A stretch of 25,642 nt of DNA from a virus (taxonomy: Duplodnaviria; Caudoviricetes), in the IMG/VR virus record IMGVR_UViG_3300027863_001452, positions 1 to 25,642 of that record, one strand, 5' to 3'. The stretch's first letter is position 1. Every line of letters begins with the position of its first letter. Made by a program: the position numbers and the translations under genes. Shown here in pieces: positions 3,261 through 25,379 of the stretch. The notes below the pieces were generated by a model. It did no database searches, had not been told where the DNA came from, and saw only the letters and a list, made by a program, of their open reading frames with translations.

Positions 3261-3623
3261 TCACTCTCCTAACAAGTGAAATCCTTCTCTTTTCAAATAT
3301 TTCTTCTGAAGTTCTGCTATCGCTATCCACCTTTCATTATCGATTTTCTGAATAAGATAACTCGATTTTATTCTCTTTCTTGCCCACTCGATTCTTTTGT
3401 TGAACTTTTCATCTAACTTCTCAAGTTCTTCGTGATACTCTCTCGGAAAACCTTGTTGAATATACTTTGTTGAACCGACACCTCTTATTGCCCACAGCCC
3501 TATATGTTTCCATTTAAAGTCTTCATCTTCTCTCTCACTTAAAGAAAACGGTGGAGAGGCCACCTTGAGTGAGTTCACTCCCTCACTCACGGAGATTTGG
3601 TTTTCTTTTTCTCTTATTTCCAT
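3261..3623 (-). CDS. Hypothetical protein (120 aa), first gene behind the conserved promoter unit
   Basis: ORF with AGGTGA SD and promoter at 3621-3688. Confidence 0.75.
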   Translation of the reverse strand: MEIREKENQISVSEGVNSLKVASPPFSLSEREDEDFKWKHIGLWAIRGVGSTKYIQQGFPREYHEELEKLDEKFNKRIEWARKRIKSSYLIQKIDNERWIAIAELQKKYLKREGFHLLGE

Positions 3624-3688
3624 TTTCTAAATCACCTACCATTAGTATAAGAAGACAACCTATATAAACCTTTCAGTGGAAACAAAGG
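3621..3688 (-). promoter_or_regulatory. Conserved promoter/leader unit (copy of the acrIII-1 promoter)
   Basis: Minus strand CCTTTGTTTCCACTG-AAAGG-TTTATATA-N11-TATACTAATG-GTAGGTGA...ATG. Confidence 0.8.
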
Positions 3689-4060
3689 TCAATAGAACCT
3701 TAACATTATCCAACCACCACTTCCACAGAAACCTTAAATAGGGAGCACCAGAACACACGTGCCAAGAAAACACTTCACAAAAACAAGACCACAACATAAA
3801 CTCCAAAGGAAACAATGGTAACATTTTCTGACACCACCACTTCCACTGAAGACTTAAATACCCCCCAACCACCATTTCCACTGCACCCACGAGGAAACAC
3901 TTAAATACAATCCTCCAATGGAAACAGTGGAAACAAAGGAGACAAAAAACGACACCACAATTTCCACTGCACAATACCATCTCTAGAACGTTTACTGTTT
4001 GTTTGGGTTTCTGTTCTTGTTTTGTCTTATGGTGGTTGTTTATATGTTCTATTTTTTTGT
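3660..4060. repeat. Non-coding repeat locus with ORB-like boxes and skew inversion; candidate replication origin or regulatory hub
   Basis: TTCAGTGGAAACAAAGG (3672), CTCCAAAGGAAACAATGG (3801), CTCCAATGGAAACAGTGGAAACAAAGG (3913); CCAC-preceded TTCCAC(A/T)G at 3721, 3841, 3876, 3962; A/C-rich to ~3985, then G/T-rich. Confidence 0.65.
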
Positions 4061-4163
4061 GTTCTTGTCAGTTTATCTTTCTTTTAACGTCTCCTTCTCT
4101 TCTCCTCTAACCGCCTCATATCCTTTGAACCTCATTTGTAAGTTTCGTTCGCCCACGTTTCTT

Positions 4164-5840: not shown

Positions 5841-8800
5841 CTACTTTCTCATTGACTTCAAAATTTTCAATACTTCTGAAAGAAATATGTTTCTCATTAA
5901 AAGGATTGCGAAAAAGTATTTGACTGCTGAAAAGATTTCTTCTACTCCAAACAATTCTTTTCTTATCATTTCAACCACCTTCTTTGTGCTATCAGATAAT
6001 CCTATTCTTTCAACTATCATGGAATAGAAGATGAAAATATATCTCTCGTTTAGAGAGAAGGTTTCATTGAACTTAAAGAATTTGGTTGGAAGGATTAGTT
6101 TAAAGTTTAGGCTAAAGACTATGCTTTTTGCGTCAGTTAACCGTTTGATGAAGACAAAGTTTATCCTCTTGTCAATTTTCACCTTTTCCATGAAAGAGGC
6201 TAAAATGGTTTTCTTGAAGGCGAATGACATATTCTGTTTTAAAGCGTCCATTGTGTACCTTCTGAAGTATGTTATCTTGTTCATTAACCCATTTGCTTTC
6301 ATGAAGTCGTTGACAATCTTTGCAATCCTCTTCTGTAAAGAGAATGCTATACTTATTCCTTCAACAAATGTTCTTGTCAGATAATGGTATGGGAATGTAA
6401 CATTTTCTTTTAGAGAAAAGATATCATATGCTTTTTCCGTGAACCTTGTAATCTTGTACTCTAAAGTTTTTATGTAATCAGACAGCCTTCTTTTAACCGT
6501 TTTCGAGACGGTGTCTGAAATCTTTAATCTCATAAACTGTATTGAGTTAAAGAACTTGCTTATTTTTTCATTTGACCATATCCTGTCCTGTACACTTTTT
6601 TTAAAGAATGAGATAGTGTTTAGAATGTGAGAGAATCTTATTGTCTCTTGAAAGAACAGTTTAGCTGACTTTAATGGTGTCAAGGTTTCTGATGTCTTGA
6701 ATCTATCGAAAACCTTTTTGGTGAAACCGAGTCTCTTAAAGGCTTCTGTGAAAGAGTAGGTTGCATAGGCTAAAGTCTTATAGTAAAAGGACATGTTTTC
6801 CCTCGCTTTAAGGTAATCGTACAGTTTCTGTGTCAAAACTCCAATTGTACTATATGTGAGACTGTAAACTGTTTTAATAGTTTCGAGAAAGGCTTTTTTA
6901 ATCTTTTTTCCGAAGTTTTCAACTGACTTTATATTTTCTGAAAAAAATCTCTTGTAAGATACTATTCTATTAAGTGTCTCGTTTAATTTTAATGTATCTG
7001 TGAAGGTTTTCACGATACCTTTCAGAAACCATAGACTTTCATTTTGTTTCAACATATTCATGAAAAATCTTTTATAGGATGCAATTCTATTGAATATTTC
7101 ATTGACTTTGAAGGTTTCTTTTAAAGTGGCAAGAACACCCTTTAATATCTTTAATGAGACCTGTACCTTTACCACATCAGATAAAATATTTCTAAAGGAT
7201 TTGGTGATACTCTCATACACTTTGACAATTTCAGTTCTCAGTGTAAGTGTTCTCTTTATGAATAAAATTTCAAGAGACTTAAAAGGTTCATAGAATATCT
7301 TTAACACGGCATTTTTTCTCTCTTCACCTAATTTGAGGAAATTAAGTCGCTTGAATATGAATACTTGCATGAAAACCTCTTTGAAGTTTAATATGGAAAC
7401 CGCTCTAAAATAGAAAATCTTCTTAGTCACTTCACTTGTCTTCCAAGCATCTTTGATGCTCTTTTTTAAGTAAACAAGTTTGTTGAGAACAACACTCTGT
7501 CTTATAGTATCTGAAAACAGACGTTTGAAACCATATATTATGTTAAGAGAGTAATTTATCTTCATCGCATCTGACAAAATTCTTCTCAGGGAAACAATTC
7601 TGTTAAAGACCTCGTTTTGTTTCAATGTATCCGTGAGAAGTTTCTTGTATAAGAAAATTTTATTAAGTATCTCATTCTGTCTGAAGTTATCTGATACGAA
7701 TTTCTTAAAGGACATAATTCTTTGAAGCGTTTCATTCTGTTTCAATCTATCAGAGAATGGTCTCATGTATGATACAATCTTTGTAATTGTTTCATTTTGC
7801 CCCATTATATCAGAAAGCGTTTTCTTATAAGAGACAATCTTATTATATGCTTCGTTTTGCTTGAACGTTTCAGAACAAAATCTTTTGTACCCCACTATTC
7901 CCTTGAAGGTTTCAGAAACTTTTGTTATCATGTAGAAGACTATTTTAGAAACCATGTTAGCCTTTTCTCTCACCTGTATCCTCTCTTGCATAACTTTTGA
8001 TAGAAGTTTTCTAAAATACTCTGTTGTCTTAAAAAATTCTTGGAGTGAAAGAATATAAAGTTTGTAGAGGGAGGTGGAGAATGTTTCAGAAGATTTTAAT
8101 GTTTCAATCTTTTTTAGAACAGTGTTCTTTCTCAATGTTTCCAACCCTTTTAGTCCATCAAAAACAAGTTTCTTGAACGAACCAATTTTTTGGAACACTT
8201 CATTTAATTTGAACACTTCTTTTAAGGAAATACCTTTGAGTATTTTCGGCCACATGCTTTCTATTGACTTAAAAAAATCGTACAGTTGAAGAGAGGTTAT
8301 TCTGTGAAGAAGGGGAGAGAATGTTTCTCTTATATTGAAAAAGTTTGAATACAGTGTATTAAACCTTTTCACGAAAGAAGGTTCACTTGTTTTAAAATAT
8401 TCGTTTATTTTAATCGGTGCATTTGTAAACGCCCACTCTTGACTTCTCGTCTGGTTTGAAGTTGCTAAAGTGTTATCGTCTATACGAAGGTAAGCGTATT
8501 GACCATTTTTCTTTGCTGTCACGTTCGCTACATAGTCTATTTCAAGGTAGTCTGTCTGGTCTACAACAGTGTATGCGGAAAAAGAGTAGTTTGCTCCAGT
8601 GTATGTTGTCCACGATGTGCCTAGGTTAGAGGATTTGCTGACTCCAGTAGCTATTGTAGTCCTAACTGTTCCATTAGATTGAAGTATCTTAATGTCTATT
8701 TCAGCATCAACTGTTCCACCACCTGTATAAGCTCGATATGTTGCATAGATTGTTGCAGAGAGAATCTGCTGTATACCGGTAAGAGGGTAAACGAATTTTC

Positions 8801-8993
8801 CCCAGACTACACGTGCAACGCTTCCAGTTGAGGCTGAAAGTGTTGTTCCACTAGCGTCTGCTGGAGTGTTAAGCTTTAGGAGGCGGTATGTTGTCCCACC
8901 TATTGTAGTCGTCTCTTGGTGACAGTATAGTATAGCATCTATTATTTTACCGTCTGTCGTGAGAAGTTTAAGGTTGCCTATTGGCTTATCCAT
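5841..8993 (-). CDS. Large putative virion protein: N-terminal Thr/Gly-rich beta domain plus ~850 aa of basic ~20-aa repeats
   Basis: 1050 aa; repeats such as KKTLSDIMGQNETITKIVSY / KKFVSDNFRQNEILNKIFLY; virion role is inferred. Confidence 0.7.
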   Translation of the reverse strand: MDKPIGNLKLLTTDGKIIDAILYCHQETTTIGGTTYRLLKLNTPADASGTTLSASTGSVARVVWGKFVYPLTGIQQILSATIYATYRAYTGGGTVDAEIDIKILQSNGTVRTTIATGVSKSSNLGTSWTTYTGANYSFSAYTVVDQTDYLEIDYVANVTAKKNGQYAYLRIDDNTLATSNQTRSQEWAFTNAPIKINEYFKTSEPSFVKRFNTLYSNFFNIRETFSPLLHRITSLQLYDFFKSIESMWPKILKGISLKEVFKLNEVFQKIGSFKKLVFDGLKGLETLRKNTVLKKIETLKSSETFSTSLYKLYILSLQEFFKTTEYFRKLLSKVMQERIQVREKANMVSKIVFYMITKVSETFKGIVGYKRFCSETFKQNEAYNKIVSYKKTLSDIMGQNETITKIVSYMRPFSDRLKQNETLQRIMSFKKFVSDNFRQNEILNKIFLYKKLLTDTLKQNEVFNRIVSLRRILSDAMKINYSLNIIYGFKRLFSDTIRQSVVLNKLVYLKKSIKDAWKTSEVTKKIFYFRAVSILNFKEVFMQVFIFKRLNFLKLGEERKNAVLKIFYEPFKSLEILFIKRTLTLRTEIVKVYESITKSFRNILSDVVKVQVSLKILKGVLATLKETFKVNEIFNRIASYKRFFMNMLKQNESLWFLKGIVKTFTDTLKLNETLNRIVSYKRFFSENIKSVENFGKKIKKAFLETIKTVYSLTYSTIGVLTQKLYDYLKARENMSFYYKTLAYATYSFTEAFKRLGFTKKVFDRFKTSETLTPLKSAKLFFQETIRFSHILNTISFFKKSVQDRIWSNEKISKFFNSIQFMRLKISDTVSKTVKRRLSDYIKTLEYKITRFTEKAYDIFSLKENVTFPYHYLTRTFVEGISIAFSLQKRIAKIVNDFMKANGLMNKITYFRRYTMDALKQNMSFAFKKTILASFMEKVKIDKRINFVFIKRLTDAKSIVFSLNFKLILPTKFFKFNETFSLNERYIFIFYSMIVERIGLSDSTKKVVEMIRKELFGVEEIFSAVKYFFAILLMRNIFLSEVLKILKSMRK
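7410..7886 (-). repeat. Degenerate 60-bp (20-aa) tandem repeat, ~8 clearest units
   Basis: Recurrent (S/T)(D/E)xxxQNE register at an exact 20-aa period. Confidence 0.8.
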
Positions 8994-9306: not shown

Positions 9307-9377
9307 AGGATATCACCAATGTTGTCAACATTTCTTTTTATATTCTAGAGGATAATTTAAACCTTTATCTTCTTGTT

Positions 9378-10505
9378 TCACCTGTTTTTTACGGGCAAAT
9401 GTATTCTCGGCCACTTTCCATCTAACATCATCTTGTACAGTTTATAGAATTCTCTTGCACCATTTCCCTTCTTGAACCTTTCAGCCCTTCTTCTCGCCTC
9501 CTCCGGTTTCAGTTCATTTACTCTCGAAAGTATTTCAGCGAATGCGTCAACACTGTTTGGGACAATGAACCCGCTTCTACCATGTTCTACTATCTCGCTC
9601 ATTGCACCATTGCATGTGGTGATAACAGGTGTCCCACATGCGAGGCTTTCGAGGACAACATAGCCGAAGGCTTCCACATAAGATACGGGGAAAATGAATG
9701 CTTTAGCCTTCTGGAGAAAATGTATTAAACTTGTCCTGTCTGGTGTTGGAACATATTCTATCCCATGCTTGTCCATTAGGGGCTTGACTTTTTCAAGAAA
9801 ATATCTTCTATGGTCTTGTGAGATAATGTCTCCACTCATCTTCAACTTTACTCCTGCCTTCACACACGCCTCTATTGCCGTTATAGGCCCTTTGACTTCA
9901 TTAAATCTTGAAACCCATATGACGTAATCTTCTTTGTCATAGCATGGTTGATAGAGGTCTAAGTCTATGTCAGGATATACTACAACAGGATTAACTATTG
10001 AAGTGTGACGGTTTTTTGACGTGAAAAAGGGATGTGGTATAGGTTCTTGAACATATGCTCCGAAAGAGCTTTCCATTGCCTTAGCATGTTTATATGATAT
10101 GGCTACAACATGATGTGGGTAGAAGAGATTGTTTTCGTCTACACTAATCAAGTGTGTTAGTGCCTTTTCTCCCATTCCAACCGTGTTTGCGAAAAAATGT
10201 GCACATTTAAAGTTTGAGCCATCGTGTATAATGTCTGATGAGAGAATGTTTTTCAAGTGCATGGCAATGTTTGCCAACTCTGTCTTTCTATCCAAAAAAC
10301 CCATTTCAGGATGAAGGCTTGAGATTTCTACAAGATTACCGTGTTCTGGTTTCCTCGACAGAGGTGAAGCATATAATGTGACATTGTGTCCCATCTTGTC
10401 AAGTTCGTCGACAACATTCCAATAAATTATTTCTCCACCGTAGGCAATAGGTGGCGTGGGATAAAGTCCCATGTATGAGAGAAAGGATATTTTTAGTGTC
10501 TCCAT
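9378..10505 (-). CDS. GT4 (GT-B fold) glycosyltransferase
   Basis: PPIAYGG N-terminal motif, SRFNEVKG, EAFGYVVLESLACGTPVI (ExFG...E) and EIVEHGRSGF. Confidence 0.92.
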   Translation of the reverse strand: METLKISFLSYMGLYPTPPIAYGGEIIYWNVVDELDKMGHNVTLYASPLSRKPEHGNLVEISSLHPEMGFLDRKTELANIAMHLKNILSSDIIHDGSNFKCAHFFANTVGMGEKALTHLISVDENNLFYPHHVVAISYKHAKAMESSFGAYVQEPIPHPFFTSKNRHTSIVNPVVVYPDIDLDLYQPCYDKEDYVIWVSRFNEVKGPITAIEACVKAGVKLKMSGDIISQDHRRYFLEKVKPLMDKHGIEYVPTPDRTSLIHFLQKAKAFIFPVSYVEAFGYVVLESLACGTPVITTCNGAMSEIVEHGRSGFIVPNSVDAFAEILSRVNELKPEEARRRAERFKKGNGAREFYKLYKMMLDGKWPRIHLPVKNR

Positions 10506-10514
10506 TCAACCACC

Positions 10515-10739
10515 CTATCCTATGAAAGTGTTTCCACTTTTCTTTTCAGCTTCTTCTTCTTTCAAATCTTTCTCCATCAGTTTATCGTTTACTTCTGCAA
10601 TGTATTCGAATGCACTCATGTATCCCGCTAACACAATCTTCATCTTCTTTAAAGCCCTTTTCACTAGAACCAGTTCATATAAGACGAACAATAGTGTTAG
10701 AATCTGGAAGATGAAAAGGTATGTTTCCAAATCTGTCAT
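10515..10739 (-). CDS. Small single-TM membrane protein
   Basis: Hydrophobic N-terminus YLFIFQILTLLFVLYELVLV; TATA box at ~10760. Confidence 0.7.
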   Translation of the reverse strand: MTDLETYLFIFQILTLLFVLYELVLVKRALKKMKIVLAGYMSAFEYIAEVNDKLMEKDLKEEEAEKKSGNTFIG

Positions 10740-10774
10740 AGTATTGGATGGACTAACACTTATTTAAAAACTTT

Positions 10775-11071
10775 TCAAACTGACGCAGTAAAGTTTTCAA
10801 GAAACTCTTTCCTTGTTCCATCCTCTTCCTTTGAGTTTGTCATTGACGCTTCAAGTTTTCTTATCTCTGAAAGAAGTTTTGCCTTTCTCTCCTTCAACCG
10901 CTCAAGCTCCTTTTCCTCGTCATCAACCTGCTTCTTCAGGTTCTCAAGTTTCGTCTGATACTCTTCTATGTCGGGAACAATCCAGTACAATTGTAGGACT
11001 TCAAAAAACTCTTTTATCTCTTCAACATTATTTAAAGTAAATGCGACACTTAACTTCATTTCACGGGGCAT
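10775..11071 (-). CDS. Hypothetical coiled-coil protein
   Basis: 98 aa with heptad-like E/K/L stretch. Confidence 0.7.
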   Translation of the reverse strand: MPREMKLSVAFTLNNVEEIKEFFEVLQLYWIVPDIEEYQTKLENLKKQVDDEEKELERLKERKAKLLSEIRKLEASMTNSKEEDGTRKEFLENFTASV

Positions 11072-11082
11072 TATTGGAACAC

Positions 11083-11223
11083 CTAAGGTGCGTTTAACGT
11101 GAACATACCCTTGTATGTTAGGTCAACTGTTTCAGAGTTTGTTACTCCTATAACACTCCAGCATAAGAGCCCCTTGCCTAGTTCAACATCCTCTTTTTCG
11201 TCTACAACGAGTTTTGTGGACAT
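11083..11223 (-). CDS. Possible small protein (46 aa; not in ORF track)
   Basis: MSTKLVVDEKEDVELGKGLLCWSVIGVTNSETVDLTYKGMFTLNAP*; AAAAAG-TTTAAATA promoter at ~11251-11263. Confidence 0.45.
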   Translation of the reverse strand: MSTKLVVDEKEDVELGKGLLCWSVIGVTNSETVDLTYKGMFTLNAP

Positions 11224-11307
11224 GATGTCATTTTAGGAATACAGTGCATTATTTAAACTTTTTGCTCATAGAAATGTTTATAAAAAGATGTTGTGTAAGC
11301 ATAATCT

Positions 11308-18824: not shown

Positions 18825-19050
18825 AGTTGACGAGAAAAAGCTTCTTGAGAAGGTTAAGATTTTCAAGAGCGGTGGAACATATGTTGGCATTATCCCATCG
18901 TTTAGCAAACCTGACGTGAACTACACTGTCGTATTCGACCTCGCCTCATCTCATATATCGTGTACTTGTCCTCATTTTGTTTACAGACAGAAGCCTTGCA
19001 AGCACATTGGACTGTTTATTAAAGCCATGAAAGAAAAGGGGTTCACGTGA
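18808..19050 (+). CDS. SWIM zinc-finger protein
   Basis: YTV...SCTCPHFVYRQKPCKHI (CxC-xn-CxH). Confidence 0.85.
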   Translation: MQCTVEVDEKKLLEKVKIFKSGGTYVGIIPSFSKPDVNYTVVFDLASSHISCTCPHFVYRQKPCKHIGLFIKAMKEKGFT

Positions 19051-22000
19051 AAAACTTTTCTATCTTCTCCGTCTTATCTTCTGACACGAAAATTCCAAGC
19101 CTCTTCAGTATCGGCATAATCTGGTTCTTTTCATAGTAGGTGTAGTCTATTTCACCTTTTTTGACGAAGTCAACTATTTTTGGAACACCTTTTCTGCAAA
19201 TAACATAGTGTATGACACCATATTTTTTAAAGTCTTCTGTGACAAGACCCTTTTCTATCGCATCACGTAATGCTTTCACATGCTGTGCGTTCACCTTATA
19301 TTCTTCAAGACCTTTTGAAACACTTTTGCTTAGGACAAGCATATCATCATATTTTCCACGTTTCATGTCATCTATAACTTTTCTCGCATACTCTTCAATC
19401 TCTTTTCTCGTCTTACCTTCTAAAAGCATTCTGATAACATCCTCTTGAACTTTTTTTGCAAGGTCACAGTTACCACACCATATTGGTTTTCCTTTGTATC
19501 TTACAAATATGATACCATTAGGAACTGTAACACAGAACACTTTTCCTCTATAATTTATTCTTTTAATATCTTTCTTTTCAACATAACCTTCATGAAATTT
19601 TCTTTCTCTAATCCTATATATTAAACGTTTTCCTTTATATCCCTTCTCTGTACACTCTCTTATTGTTCCCAAAGAACCACATTTTAATAACATTTCTTGT
19701 AAATCATCTGCCAAACGTTTAGAAGATGTACAGTATTCTTTAGAACCATGACTGATATAACCATCAAATTCTACAAAAGTATCTAAGAAACATCTTATCA
19801 TATTACTTTCCAATTCCTTTATATTTTGGTCAACAAATTTGTCCTTCGCATGCCCATATTTGCTTAACATTTTCGCTAAAGCAGACGAATATATTGTAAA
19901 TGTAGTTACTCCTTTTTTATCTGTTTTTTCTGTATATTTGAATGGCAATTTATTCAATATTTCTCTAACCAGTTGAATCTTATTTTTCTGTCCTATACGC
20001 ACTTTCCTTTTATCTGCCCACCCTTCTGCTAACCATAAAGCCATGAATCTCACCCAATCCTCGGTTTTGATTTTATACCCTACTACATCAAAATAATCTT
20101 TTTTCTTTCCTTGCCATTTCGCCGTCCTCAAAAATCTATAATATGATTTCACCAGATTTCTTGCTTCAATAAACTTATACTCTTTACTCTCGTTTTCTTT
20201 AACAAGCATTCTATGTTCTGGTGTTACACCAATTTCTATACTCTTATTTTCTATTTTAATAATCTCACCATCATAATCTTTTCGTATTATTTTGATTGGT
20301 TTCTGATATTCAAGAAAGCCATCTTTTCCTAATGTTGCAACAAAATCTTCTTCCGTTACATCTCTAAAGTTCTTCCAACCATTTATTGTTAATATCTCTG
20401 TACCATCTATAAAACACCAGTCGCCTCTCTCATGTTCTAATCCAACTATCTCCATCATGTTTTTTTCACCATTTTTTCCAACCGCTATTATTCCAGCATA
20501 CCTTTTCTTTACAGACGTTCCAGCACTTGAAAGGGGAAAGAGGATTTTACTCCAGTATCCTTCAAACTTCATTCTAATGTTGGAAACGTTAAACTGTTGC
20601 CTTATCGCCTCATTGATAAGGTTCTGTATAATATCCTTTTTCTCGAAAGGTGCTTGGATGAAGATAGAGTCAGTGTCACCGTAGATGACCTTGAAACCTA
20701 TGCTTTCAATAAACTTGATTGTGAAGAGAATTATTTCTCTACCTTTTTCCGCAACCTTTTCTCCAACCTCTGAAGAGTATACTCTACTGTATGGGCTACT
20801 GAAGAAACCGTACATGCTGTTGACGAGAAGCTTGTAGGCCATGTATTCTATCTCATCTTTTGCCTTCTCCTTCTGCTCCAAATATTCTTTCACTATCGGT
20901 ATAAAAACCTCTTTTCTATCCCAAGGTGCAAGTTCAAATCCTATGAGGATATTCGGGTAAAGTGAATTGTGTGTTAGGATGCCGTTTGCAAAATAGTATG
21001 GAAATTCCTCCCATTCTAACGTTATATCGTAAACGGGCCCATTATACTTATATGTTTCTATATTTTTGATTTTCTCGATGGAAACATAAGGGTTTCTGTT
21101 TCTATTACCCTTACATATTACATGCATACATAATCCGAATTTTGGATGTTTCCCCATTCTCTTTGAACCTAAAATCCTTTCACGAATAATGTTACGAAGT
21201 TTCTCGTTTTTAACTGAGGAGATAAATCCGATTTCAGTATAAAATTTCAGAAGAGAATAGAGACCTTTCAGTTCACAGTACCAATTTGAATATGTACGGT
21301 TACATTTGTTTTTATATGAATATTTATGGGAGTTGAAGGATATTCCAACATCATTCAAAAATTGAGAAATTATTTTGAGCTTTTCTTCATTAACCGTTGA
21401 CTGAATAAATTCAATTGTCTTACGTTTTATGTTAACTGTGCCGTCTCCTTCAAAAAATCCAGATAAGAATGAAAGTTTCTCTTCTAATGAGGGATTTTTT
21501 AAGAAGTCTTCTAACCTTCGGATGAAGTCGAGAACAATATTCTTTTTCGAGAATACTAAATCGACGCCTTTTGAATTTTTCTTTCTTTTCTCATAAATGT
21601 GGATAGATGGATATTCTGAAGTTAAAGTGGAGACAATAAAATCTCTTAATTCCTTCTCATCGCTTGAAATAGAGAAAGAGATACGATATTGGTGTGAAAC
21701 TCTTTTACAGTTTCTTGTTTTGTCAAAGTATGGAATATCTTTTCTTAGAAAACTTCCTTCGGCAAAAAATATTCCAAACAGTTTAGCCATTTTGTTTTCA
21801 TTATAAACAGGCGGGTTTCCTTGAAATACAATCAGTTTTTCTCCTTTCCTCAATTCTTCAGCCATTCTCTCTTTTATCTTGTTTCCGATGATGACGGGAA
21901 ACTTATGTTGTAAAGTAGCATCTATTGTTTTACCGCTTTCAAGCTCTATTTTTCTCAACAGTGAATTAATGTTGTAGATATGAATTTTTTTAACATGTTG

Positions 22001-23158
22001 CCAACCGTATGGTGTTAAAACCTCCTCTCCCTCTCTTAGAGAAGAGATTTGTGTTAACCCATGTCTTGTAATCACAAGAGTGTCTCCCCTGAGACAAGAG
22101 AAATCATATTGGAGAATGTTCTCATATATTCCTGATTTTGGCATGTGAATGTATGCACCCTTGTATTTTTCATGTGTTCGTTCCACATATGATGGACACA
22201 CGTAACCAAGTGCTCTAGCACGTTTCAAGATAATGTTGGTGTGAACAGGTGAAGGTGTTACAGTGTTCTTGTCCTCACGTTTGCCTAAAACGAGGTCTGG
22301 AAAAAGGTTTGACATTTGAGCCAAATGAATTGCGAGCTTGCTGAAATGAAATTTCATGTCAACTTTTTCTGTCATAAGAGTATCCCACACATTTCTTTCC
22401 CTTATCTCCTCCTCTTTCAAGTCCTTCATTCTCTTACCCTCATAAGGTTTGGTTTCATTAAATTCTTTTGCCACATAAGATAGACTGTACCTTGACCTGT
22501 TGACCGTATAACGGTAAAATTGCATTATGTCTAGGAATCTGATAGAATGTTCATCGACATTGACACCATTCTTTCTACACCTTTTAACAAAATACTCTTT
22601 GTCCCAGTCACTGTTCCAGCCAATTAGTAGGCGAACATGTTCTTCTTTTAGGTAGGAGAGGAAATTGGATAAAATGTCCTTCTCGTCTCCCTGAAACGTT
22701 TCTATCCCATCTCTTTTCACTGAAATCGCTATAATCGGTTCTGATGCCGTCTCCTGGTCTGGGAAACCGTTTGTGTCCAAAACCTCTATATCCCAATATG
22801 CTTTCACGTTCTCGTAAGATGGGCATTTGATGCTATTGTCTATCATCCACCGTTTCGTATACGGTATGTCTCCCTCGTACACTCTTCTACCGAACCTTTC
22901 AATATTGTCTCGAAAGTTTTTCACATGTGCTGGAAACATGAAAGAATATTTTTTCACGTTCTCGTTCGTGTCAAGTGTCTTGAGAGAAGTGTTTTCTACT
23001 CGTATTGGAAACTTTGATTCGACATCGTATGCTGATGGAACAAAACAGTATGGTTCAGGATATGCTTCAACCTCTTCCACATCGTTTTCAGTGTAAAGTT
23101 TCATGTACAGTTTCCCGTTCTTGACAACATAGTTGGCGGAACAGACACCTGCTGTCAT
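19043..23158 (-). CDS. polB: Family B DNA polymerase with two inteins (678-aa extein)
   Basis: ExoI WDIE, ExoII GWNSDWD, motif A YDFS|SLYP, motif B KLLVNSMYG, motif C YGDTDS, KKRY. Confidence 0.96.
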   Translation of the reverse strand: MTAGVCSANYVVKNGKLYMKLYTENDVEEVEAYPEPYCFVPSAYDVESKFPIRVENTSLKTLDTNENVKKYSFMFPAHVKNFRDNIERFGRRVYEGDIPYTKRWMIDNSIKCPSYENVKAYWDIEVLDTNGFPDQETASEPIIAISVKRDGIETFQGDEKDILSNFLSYLKEEHVRLLIGWNSDWDKEYFVKRCRKNGVNVDEHSIRFLDIMQFYRYTVNRSRYSLSYVAKEFNETKPYEGKRMKDLKEEEIRERNVWDTLMTEKVDMKFHFSKLAIHLAQMSNLFPDLVLGKREDKNTVTPSPVHTNIILKRARALGYVCPSYVERTHEKYKGAYIHMPKSGIYENILQYDFSCLRGDTLVITRHGLTQISSLREGEEVLTPYGWQHVKKIHIYNINSLLRKIELESGKTIDATLQHKFPVIIGNKIKERMAEELRKGEKLIVFQGNPPVYNENKMAKLFGIFFAEGSFLRKDIPYFDKTRNCKRVSHQYRISFSISSDEKELRDFIVSTLTSEYPSIHIYEKRKKNSKGVDLVFSKKNIVLDFIRRLEDFLKNPSLEEKLSFLSGFFEGDGTVNIKRKTIEFIQSTVNEEKLKIISQFLNDVGISFNSHKYSYKNKCNRTYSNWYCELKGLYSLLKFYTEIGFISSVKNEKLRNIIRERILGSKRMGKHPKFGLCMHVICKGNRNRNPYVSIEKIKNIETYKYNGPVYDITLEWEEFPYYFANGILTHNSLYPNILIGFELAPWDRKEVFIPIVKEYLEQKEKAKDEIEYMAYKLLVNSMYGFFSSPYSRVYSSEVGEKVAEKGREIILFTIKFIESIGFKVIYGDTDSIFIQAPFEKKDIIQNLINEAIRQQFNVSNIRMKFEGYWSKILFPLSSAGTSVKKRYAGIIAVGKNGEKNMMEIVGLEHERGDWCFIDGTEILTINGWKNFRDVTEEDFVATLGKDGFLEYQKPIKIIRKDYDGEIIKIENKSIEIGVTPEHRMLVKENESKEYKFIEARNLVKSYYRFLRTAKWQGKKKDYFDVVGYKIKTEDWVRFMALWLAEGWADKRKVRIGQKNKIQLVREILNKLPFKYTEKTDKKGVTTFTIYSSALAKMLSKYGHAKDKFVDQNIKELESNMIRCFLDTFVEFDGYISHGSKEYCTSSKRLADDLQEMLLKCGSLGTIRECTEKGYKGKRLIYRIRERKFHEGYVEKKDIKRINYRGKVFCVTVPNGIIFVRYKGKPIWCGNCDLAKKVQEDVIRMLLEGKTRKEIEEYARKVIDDMKRGKYDDMLVLSKSVSKGLEEYKVNAQHVKALRDAIEKGLVTEDFKKYGVIHYVICRKGVPKIVDFVKKGEIDYTYYEKNQIMPILKRLGIFVSEDKTEKIEKFFT
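19469..20416 (-). mobile_element. Intein 2 (316 aa) with LAGLIDADG-type domain, at RGDW|C in the thumb
   Basis: Starts CFIDGTEILT, block B VTPEHRM, ALWLAEG and DTFVEFDG, ends VFCVTV...WCGN followed by Cys. Confidence 0.9.
20966..22096 (-). mobile_element. Intein 1 (377 aa) with LAGLIDADG homing endonuclease, in Pol motif A
   Basis: Starts CLRGDTLV, block B ATLQHKF, LAGLIDADG blocks GIFFAEG and SGFFEGDG, ends VYDI...ANGILTHN followed by Ser. Confidence 0.93.
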
Positions 23159-25287: not shown

Positions 25288-25379
25288 AAGAATGTTAGAA
25301 CACTCTTTTAAAAACCTTTCTCAACAAAGTCAAGGGTAAAGGTTTAAATTGTCTTCTAGAATATAAAATTTGAAGATAG

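Follow-up and report, generated by a model that had tools for sequence, protein, structure and literature searches.

The DNA analysed here, called the window below, is the whole of a 25,642-bp contig from a virus of the head-tail archaeal type. It encodes an HK97-type capsid protein, a terminase, an intein-bearing PolB, PriX, a DHH protein and a KaiC/RecA-like ATPase, as well as a homologue of AcrIII-1/STIV B116 and a tRNA-Ile(TAT). The sequence is present in hot-spring sequencing runs, and no RNA dataset was found among the runs listed as containing it. Three complete genomes of 105-107 kb (G001-G003) are among the relatives whose capsid proteins are 64-66% identical, which makes it probable that the window covers about one quarter of its virus genome. 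No annotated phage matching the virus was found. A capsid profile matched 15 of 401 Bathyarchaeia genomes at E <= 1e-8 and 10 at E <= 1e-20, the stricter threshold giving none among 120 genomes of the Thermoprotei class and none among 62 of the Methanomethylicia class (class labels taken from the record titles of centre genomes). The host is probably a member of the Bathyarchaeia, an assignment that is likely rather than established because the proviral capsids of this group are only about 40% identical to that of the virus and three classes were compared. Matches in a CRISPR-spacer search were mostly to tRNA and low-complexity sequence and uninformative for the host, no exact match was found for the tRNA as an attachment site, and MCP searches of genome contigs as well as an alignment-based DHH search of 401 Thermoproteota genomes returned nothing.

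The gene for the AcrIII-1/STIV B116 homologue (DUF1874) lies at 526-858 on the minus strand and is supported by matches in Pfam (PF08960, E 3.9e-28) and PDB (AFV3-109, E 4e-23). A leftward gene block runs from 3623 to 1535 and begins with ORF 3261-3623 (minus strand; ORF 3623 below), for which six other homologues were found; protein-based locus searches with this ORF found nothing. In its 5' part two hairpins, one of them terminator-like with a T run, occupy 3541-3592 on the minus strand and coincide with the most invariant residues of the homologues, making a DNA- or RNA-level constraint such as attenuation possible there. An ORF at 3660-3980 on the minus strand has no Pfam match and was treated as spurious, and a sigma-70 scan was set aside as not relevant to archaea.

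Upstream of the leftward block lies a cluster of a 16-bp box with the consensus CAGTGGAAR-NNN-WGGT, present in eight copies within 3674-3969 and in two more upstream of acrIII-1. The earlier note on this DNA had described three units of about 120 bp, each made of a box resembling an archaeal origin recognition box (ORB) and a separate TTCCAC(A/T)G element. The boxes that it quoted are found exactly at 3672, 3801 and 3913, as are the TTCCAC(A/T)G elements at 3721, 3841, 3876 and 3962 with their spacings of 120 and 121. The division into units was nevertheless a mis-parse, as the plus-strand boxes are spaced by 130, 112 and 9 bp and a repeat search found only short blocks in common, up to 41 nt. 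Nor are there two motifs: read on the other strand, the TTCCAC(A/T)G element and the CCAC-rich run next to it are this same box, giving eight boxes, four on each strand, with plus-strand boxes starting at 3674, 3804, 3916 and 3925 and minus-strand boxes at 3728, 3848, 3883 and 3969. From left to right, with scores on the cellular ORB matrix described below, these are box 1 (3674-3689, plus, 16.3 bits), whose 5' end overlaps the BRE of the ORF 3623 promoter; box 2 (3713-3728, minus, under 6 bits), a CCAC run with TTCCACAG that abuts a TATA-like element at 3733-3740; box 3 (3804-3819, plus, 9.6 bits); box 4 (3833-3848, minus), the best of the window at 18.9 bits, which abuts a TATA-like element at 3853-3860; box 5 (3868-3883, minus, 10.1 bits), sharing 15 of its 16 core bases with an ORB from Bathyarchaeia (L239); the overlapping boxes 6 (3916-3931, plus, 15.4 bits) and 7 (3925-3940, plus, 12.5 bits); and box 8 (3954-3969, minus, 13.7 bits).

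TTCCACWG occurs 10 times in the window, six times within 3674-3969 and also at 910 and 962, against an expectation of 2.13 +/- 1.26; none of 100 shuffles reached 10. A chance origin of the boxes is excluded by these shuffles and by the simulation of matrix clusters given below. DNA-pattern searches for close relatives of the region gave one unrelated GC-rich match and, in another search, none; the 113 metagenome loci obtained from a DNA-pattern search had no blastn similarity to the box region. In run X4 a contig joins 3720 to 3876, skipping 155 bases, so some strains may have fewer boxes.

For comparison with cellular ORBs we collected at least 80 loci with a degenerate ORB pattern; 75 were archaeal by title and five bacterial-labelled ones were dropped. 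A cdc6 gene lay within the fetched flank in 29 of the 80 ORB loci listed. The cellular matrix was built from 36 secondary ORBs of the listed loci that the search pattern had not forced. It gave 17 window matches of at least 6 bits, the six best being boxes and seven of the eight cluster boxes reaching this score, whereas no 320-bp stretch of the 60 sequences simulated contained more than three matches. The ten window boxes resemble the cellular matrix column by column over about 17 positions, including Gs at the offset of the G-string, a similarity that none of 3000 column permutations reached (p = 0.0003). The ORB likeness proposed in the earlier note thus holds in its columns, but not in strength: no window box exceeds 18.9 bits, compared with a minimum of 21.7 and a median of 32.7 for cellular ORBs of the listed loci, which had been selected for G-strings. 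The deficit is due to the short G-string, already noted earlier and borne out here, as a four-G string is found in 0 of 10 window boxes, although it is seen in the relatives L396 and G002. The C before the core is kept in two of the ten boxes; in the dyad core all ten have the GGAA half and two the full TCC half. By their sequence the window boxes resemble mini-ORBs. Work on Pyrococcus found weak Cdc6 binding to a lone mini-ORB, and clusters are believed to aid specific binding (PMC1904270).

The boxes are closely associated with promoters. A box had been seen at 907-924 in front of acrIII-1 and is indeed present; overlooked were a second box at 962-977 and a 50-bp repeat, 78% identical, at 876-925 and 3640-3689. 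Read on the minus strand, both copies have the order box, BRE, TATA, and they precede acrIII-1 and ORF 3623, the start of the leftward block. In the predicted acrIII-1 promoter (876-925, minus) the box at 910-925 (15.7 bits) overlaps the BRE and the TATA lies at 897-904; in the predicted promoter of the leftward block (3640-3689, minus) box and BRE are followed by a TATA at 3661-3668. The second upstream box is on the plus strand, followed by TTTATATA at 978-985, and the pair (962-985) lies upstream of ORF 1021-1224. A contig of run X1, which may be the source sample, has the depth of the virus and carries a copy of 3637-3682, 24 other letters, a copy of 955-1012 and then base 1 of the window, which places a third promoter and box module just left of that base. 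The same BRE-TATA surroundings thus stand before several genes, with two copies inside the window and the third just outside. Three CTTAAATA TATA-like elements on the plus strand of the cluster, at 3733, 3853 and 3900 (3733-3907), have purine-rich upstream sequence and no annotated ORF following on that strand.

The window holds 25 BRE-TATA matches, and a box abuts four of them (904-, 3668-, 3733+ and 3853+), all in the intergenic regions of acrIII-1 and ORF 3623; at 3900+ the box is slightly further upstream and does not abut. An adjacent TATA-like element is found at six of the ten window boxes and is absent at four of the eight cluster boxes. Taking adjacency as within 14 nt upstream or 16 nt downstream, TATA-like elements adjoin 15 of 28 viral boxes as against 11 of 123 cellular ORBs of the listed loci (p = 5.5e-7), the boxes being hand-picked and the pattern chosen post hoc. 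At 904- and 3668- the BRE is the 5' end of the box itself, with a G at -6 and an A at -3, bases described for strong promoters (PMC11065993). The link between box and promoter is therefore stronger than first noted, consisting of whole modules of box, BRE and TATA and of a general pairing with TATA-like elements, and regulation of the acrIII-1 and ORF 3623 promoters by the box appears fairly likely on this evidence. The BRE sits in the 5' part of the box, so the simplest mode would be for Orc1 and TFB to compete; Orc1 might instead activate these promoters, by analogy with Orc1-2 (PMC6061795). The size, clustering and promoter strength of the acrIII-1 and ORF 3623 genes suggest that they are early genes. 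AcrIII-1 itself may not function as an anti-CRISPR in a natural setting (PMC11065993).

No host regulon with this arrangement of box and TATA was found: the pattern matched 73 times, in 58 of 201 Bathyarchaeia genomes, compared with about 38 times for a reversed control (a manual count), and of the 30 sites fetched 20 lay inside ORFs of at least 100 aa. One box of a Bathyarchaeia oriC (L354) abuts a TATA-like element. Two further Bathyarchaeia genomes (L366:1490-1560 and L369:1450-1520) share TTTAAA and, after it, an ORB-like dyad whose G-string is short; these elements lie upstream of a 482-aa gene whose N-terminus was labelled HTH-like by eye.

Boxes are present in four of five relatives (G001, G002, L394 and L396, not G003), always in one syntenic, largely gene-free gap; L395 was left out of this count as its sequence does not include the gap. 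The boxes of G001 (74,780-75,780) are interrupted by two ORFs, one of them LAGLIDADG-like, those of G002 (91,527-91,750) lie in the largest gap of that genome, and the gap of L396 holds a full ORB of 27.1 bits. G002 and L396 have in common an inward pair of boxes 45-47 bp apart around a TATA-like palindrome, resembling the 44-bp pairs of the window. The gap of G003 (10,178-11,260) gave no matrix match, with weaker TGGAA-type repeats visible by eye only, although this genome shares the replication genes and the skew minimum. In G001-G003 the genes flanking the window's cluster are without homologues, one weak zinc-ribbon match excepted; the window locus and the gap are therefore equated by motif alone. 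Each gap of the relatives contains 3-12 TATA-like elements; at L394:3652-4966, L396:4681-5460 and L155:14590-16240 there are 8-12, in both orientations. Gaps packed with TATA-like elements in this way suggest many short transcripts or a TBP array. In 11 stretches around related proviral capsid genes from six Bathyarchaeia genomes no box cluster was found.

The earlier note had proposed a cellular-style origin. On the side of this proposal stand the ORB-like boxes and part of the skew data. The global minimum of the detrended purine skew falls at 76,167 in G001, 91,517 in G002 and 11,022 in G003, within about 0.4 kb of the boxes in the first two and inside the gap in the third, and the window-wide keto-skew minimum at 3989 is at the edge of the cluster. 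At four-fold sites of the window the T:A ratio on the plus strand is 103:123 left of the cluster versus 942:782 right of it (p = 0.011). The minima also coincide with a switch in gene orientation at the start of a long co-oriented gene block, however, and the four-fold-site signals do not agree, T-A in G001 having the opposite sign to the window's once the gene blocks are oriented alike and that in G002 not being significant. Turning points of G-C lie close to the gap in G001 and, without significance, in the window, but far from it in G002 and G003. The skew evidence for an origin is mixed and confounded with gene orientation.

The geometry of the cluster departs from the cellular style. Inward pairs in the window are 44, 44 and 54 bp apart and outward pairs 76 and 33 bp, whereas neighbouring cellular ORBs of the listed loci form 27 outward pairs (69-628 bp) and seven inward ones, none closer than 81 bp. 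In Sulfolobus oriC1 two ORBs enclose an unwinding element (PMC12141716). In the window just one outward gap, 3729-3800, has a length in the cellular range. Its A+T content of 61% is lower than the window's average and its duplex weakness ranks at the 16th percentile, so that the outward pair 3728/3804 flanks comparatively stable DNA and does not reproduce the oriC1 arrangement. Easily melted DNA lies on either side of the cluster: a T/G-rich flank at 3975-4090 (69% A+T, 96th percentile of duplex weakness) is a candidate melting site, and the flank at 3590-3670 is at the 98th percentile of the window. No orc1/cdc6 gene adjoins the cluster in the window. Judged by the tests applied, the cluster would work like an ORB cluster yet falls outside the canonical oriC class, with short G-strings, no melting element between boxes, close inward pairs, mixed skew and, in the relatives, an MCM-like ATPase of the virus's own. 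A replication origin at the cluster has, in our estimate, slightly better than an even chance.

The absence of an orc1 gene from the window, remarked on before, was confirmed, and the search was carried into the complete relatives. Cdc6_C was found in none of five records, tblastn with host Cdc6 gave no match in G001-G003 or the window, the best E value of a winged-helix profile among 4627 six-frame segments was 0.54, and a full-length profile matched only other P-loop ATPases, judged by PHROG and Pfam labels. That no Orc1/Cdc6 is detectable in the window and three complete relatives supports reliance on a host initiator. Pfam MCM gave nothing above its cut-off, but G001-G003 have a core ORF of some 450 aa that can be aligned with host MCM through Walker A, Walker B and an ANP motif (hhalign probability 73.7, E 2.9e-5; 0.05 and 0.2 in two control alignments), and it has no Pfam or PDB sequence match. 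This candidate, a divergent MCM-clade AAA+ ATPase with 28 homologues found, lies at L152:4475-5830 (minus) beside an ORF at L152:3796-4485 (minus), with homologues in L159 and L166; the pair is missed by Pfam and PHROGs. The motifs of the neighbouring ORF look like those of an AEP primase, for which Pfam and PDB gave no support. Both ORFs lie outside the window fragment. The DHH protein of the window has a RecJ/GAN/Cdc45 fold (model pLDDT 63), and in each of the four genomes the RadA/KaiC-like ATPase, PriX and PolB are neighbours. It is likely, judging from these alignments, that the viruses bring their own helicase without a recognisable initiator; with an MCM-like ATPase encoded by the relatives, they need not depend on host helicase loading.

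Taken together, our best explanation, which we hold tentatively and at somewhat short of an even chance, is that the boxes are bound by host Orc1/Cdc6, which would license a non-canonical origin and block the promoters in which box and BRE overlap. Binding of the boxes by a host protein of the Orc1 type seems, taken by itself, rather probable. On entry TBP and TFB would transcribe the box-bearing promoters. Host Orc1 would then fill the boxes, cooperatively if single mini-ORBs bind as weakly as in Pyrococcus, and would compete with TFB at the box-BRE overlap, thus repressing the acrIII-1 and ORF 3623 promoters. The Orc1 array could promote melting at the flank 3590-3670 or 3975-4090; a helicase, either the viral MCM-like ATPase known from relatives or host MCM, would be loaded next, followed by a hand-over to viral PolB, PriX and RecJ/GAN-fold proteins. 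The explanation is limited by the fact that roughly three quarters of the viral genome lies beyond the window. One may speculate further that tailed Bathyarchaeia viruses of about 105 kb use host Orc1/Cdc6 as a two-in-one switch, in which degenerate ORB-BRE-TATA fusions shut anti-defence early promoters and license an origin for the viral MCM-like helicase; we regard this general form as unlikely, and if true it would tie the transition from early expression to replication to the cell-cycle state of the host.

Several other readings have to be weighed. The box could be the operator of a virus-specific family of early or anti-defence promoters, read by an ordinary viral or host transcription factor, its ORB likeness reflecting ancestry or convergence and the cluster being a multi-promoter control region with no origin. 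The 50-bp promoter common to acrIII-1 and ORF 3623 that recurs a third time outside the contig, a box-TATA coupling atypical of cellular ORBs and the 3-12 TATA-like elements in each relative's gap all fit this reading, and archaeal viruses do have virus-specific shared regulatory sequences, some of them repeats overlapping the BRE (PMC11065993). It accounts poorly for the column-wise match to cellular ORBs over some 17 positions, among them the Gs that stand where the G-string would be, for the full ORB of L396 and for the four of eight cluster boxes that have no adjacent TATA; eight boxes would also be more than one leftward promoter needs. We consider it unlikely, though it deserves to be kept in view. 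The geometry, non-cellular and with no melting element between boxes, is compatible with the possibility that host Orc1/Cdc6 binds the boxes only as a regulator or decoy, timing early transcription or being titrated from the host oriC, while replication proceeds by recombination or from transcripts of the TATA-like elements with the RadA-like ATPase, the RecJ-fold nuclease and PolB. The adjacency of the RadA/KaiC-like ATPase, PriX and PolB in all four genomes agrees with it, as do two precedents: Sulfolobus Orc1-2 is a promoter-binding regulator (PMC6061795), and an ORB cluster has been proposed to control an origin negatively in Haloarcula (PMC4010727). The skew minima at the boxes of G001 and G002 and at the cluster edge in the window, together with the easily melted flanks, speak for an origin instead, and we think a mere regulator or decoy improbable.

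An origin independent of host Orc1 is also conceivable, in which the boxes are iterons of an undetectably divergent viral initiator acting with the viral MCM-like ATPase. How far replication proteins of these viruses can diverge is shown by the MCM-clade ATPase beside its primase-like ORF, both missed by Pfam; the boxes depart from cellular ORBs in a consistent manner, and MCMs of Thermococcales viruses have been proposed to carry their own origin-binding domain (PMC12934983). Against such an initiator, the complete relatives show nothing resembling the winged helix of Cdc6, the gap of G003 is without matrix matches although that genome encodes the same ATPase, and the full cellular-type ORB of L396 would be easier to understand with a cellular reader, which leaves this reading quite improbable. 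It is hardly credible that the repeats form the stems of a structured non-coding RNA or arose by chance. The minus strand of 3660-4080 does fold at z = -2.78 and TATA-like elements point into the region, but plus-strand folds are not significant (z = -1.76; for 3762-4090 z = -1.31 in a dinucleotide-preserving test, a cruder shuffle giving -2.84), inverted boxes form stems by themselves and there is no Rfam match in the region.

Returning to host Orc1/Cdc6 as the reader of the boxes, the viral cluster can be set beside known systems. The cellular origins of the oriC1 type that we compared were Pyrococcus oriC, Sulfolobus oriC1 and oriC2 and the Bathyarchaeia oriC in L354 and L239. With these it shares the core and register, Gs where the G-string would lie, multiple copies in both orientations within DNA devoid of genes and, apparently, a position near skew turning points. 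It differs in its short G-string, its tight inward pairs, the abutment of boxes on TATA/BRE, the missing AT-rich unwinding element between outward boxes and adjacent orc1/cdc6, and its location in a viral genome. Like the viral promoters of PMC11065993 it presents virus-specific sequence around a strong BRE-TATA, repeated before small genes including an acr homologue; unlike them the element here is ORB-like and has eight copies in a non-coding cluster, and no Aca8-like regulator was identified. In that study acrIII-1 is rarely linked to such motifs (prevalence 0.13). A predicted Orc1-family protein on a promoter motif recalls the Orc1-2/DDRE regulon of Sulfolobus (PMC6061795). Orc1-2, however, is a non-initiator paralogue that binds 5'-ANTTTC-3' and activates host genes, while the box here is of the Orc1-1 type, on a virus, and overlaps the BRE.

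The earlier note knew of no case in which origin licensing and transcription are coupled through one initiator-like protein; this has to be qualified, since Orc1-family action at promoters is already known (PMC6061795), as are shared regulatory sequences at anti-defence promoters of archaeal viruses (PMC11065993). In the accessible parts of the literature, leaving aside the supplementary motif lists of PMC11065993, no viral ORB read by host Orc1 is described. AGV1 and Thermococcales viruses are reported to be without ORBs (10.1101/2021.04.21.440749; PMC12934983), the main text of PMC8651126 does not mention Orc1, Cdc6 or MCM, and use of host Orc1 has been raised as a possibility for Methanoperedens plasmids (PMC9674854). 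What is distinct here is the coupling of box and TATA/BRE, the place of a box in a predicted anti-CRISPR promoter and the candidate viral MCM-like helicase. The question on which these bear is how archaeal viruses without an initiator gene begin replication.

Further features of the genome were seen in passing. The viral tRNA-Ile (256-331; TAT anticodon by ARAGORN and Rfam) stands behind a BRE-TATA at 227; in most archaea AUA is read by a modified CAU tRNA. PolB (19043-23158) contains two inteins, at least one having a LAGLIDADG domain, whereas the PolB of the relatives is about 700 aa. A 1050-aa protein at 5841-8993 has a periodic repeat of about 20 aa (60-bp DNA period), and its N-terminal domain has matches of about 55% identity in one Bathyarchaeia genome (L335). 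G001 encodes homologues of ribosomal protein S2 (L154:2833-3540, minus), a SET-domain protein (L154:186-1322) and a GNAT protein (L153:2138-2587), and the S2 homologue is kept in G001-G003, adjoining the DHH gene. Finally, a 32-bp inverted repeat, 94% complementary, is found in the window at 9336-9367 and 25337-25368, its two copies 16 kb apart and both intergenic.
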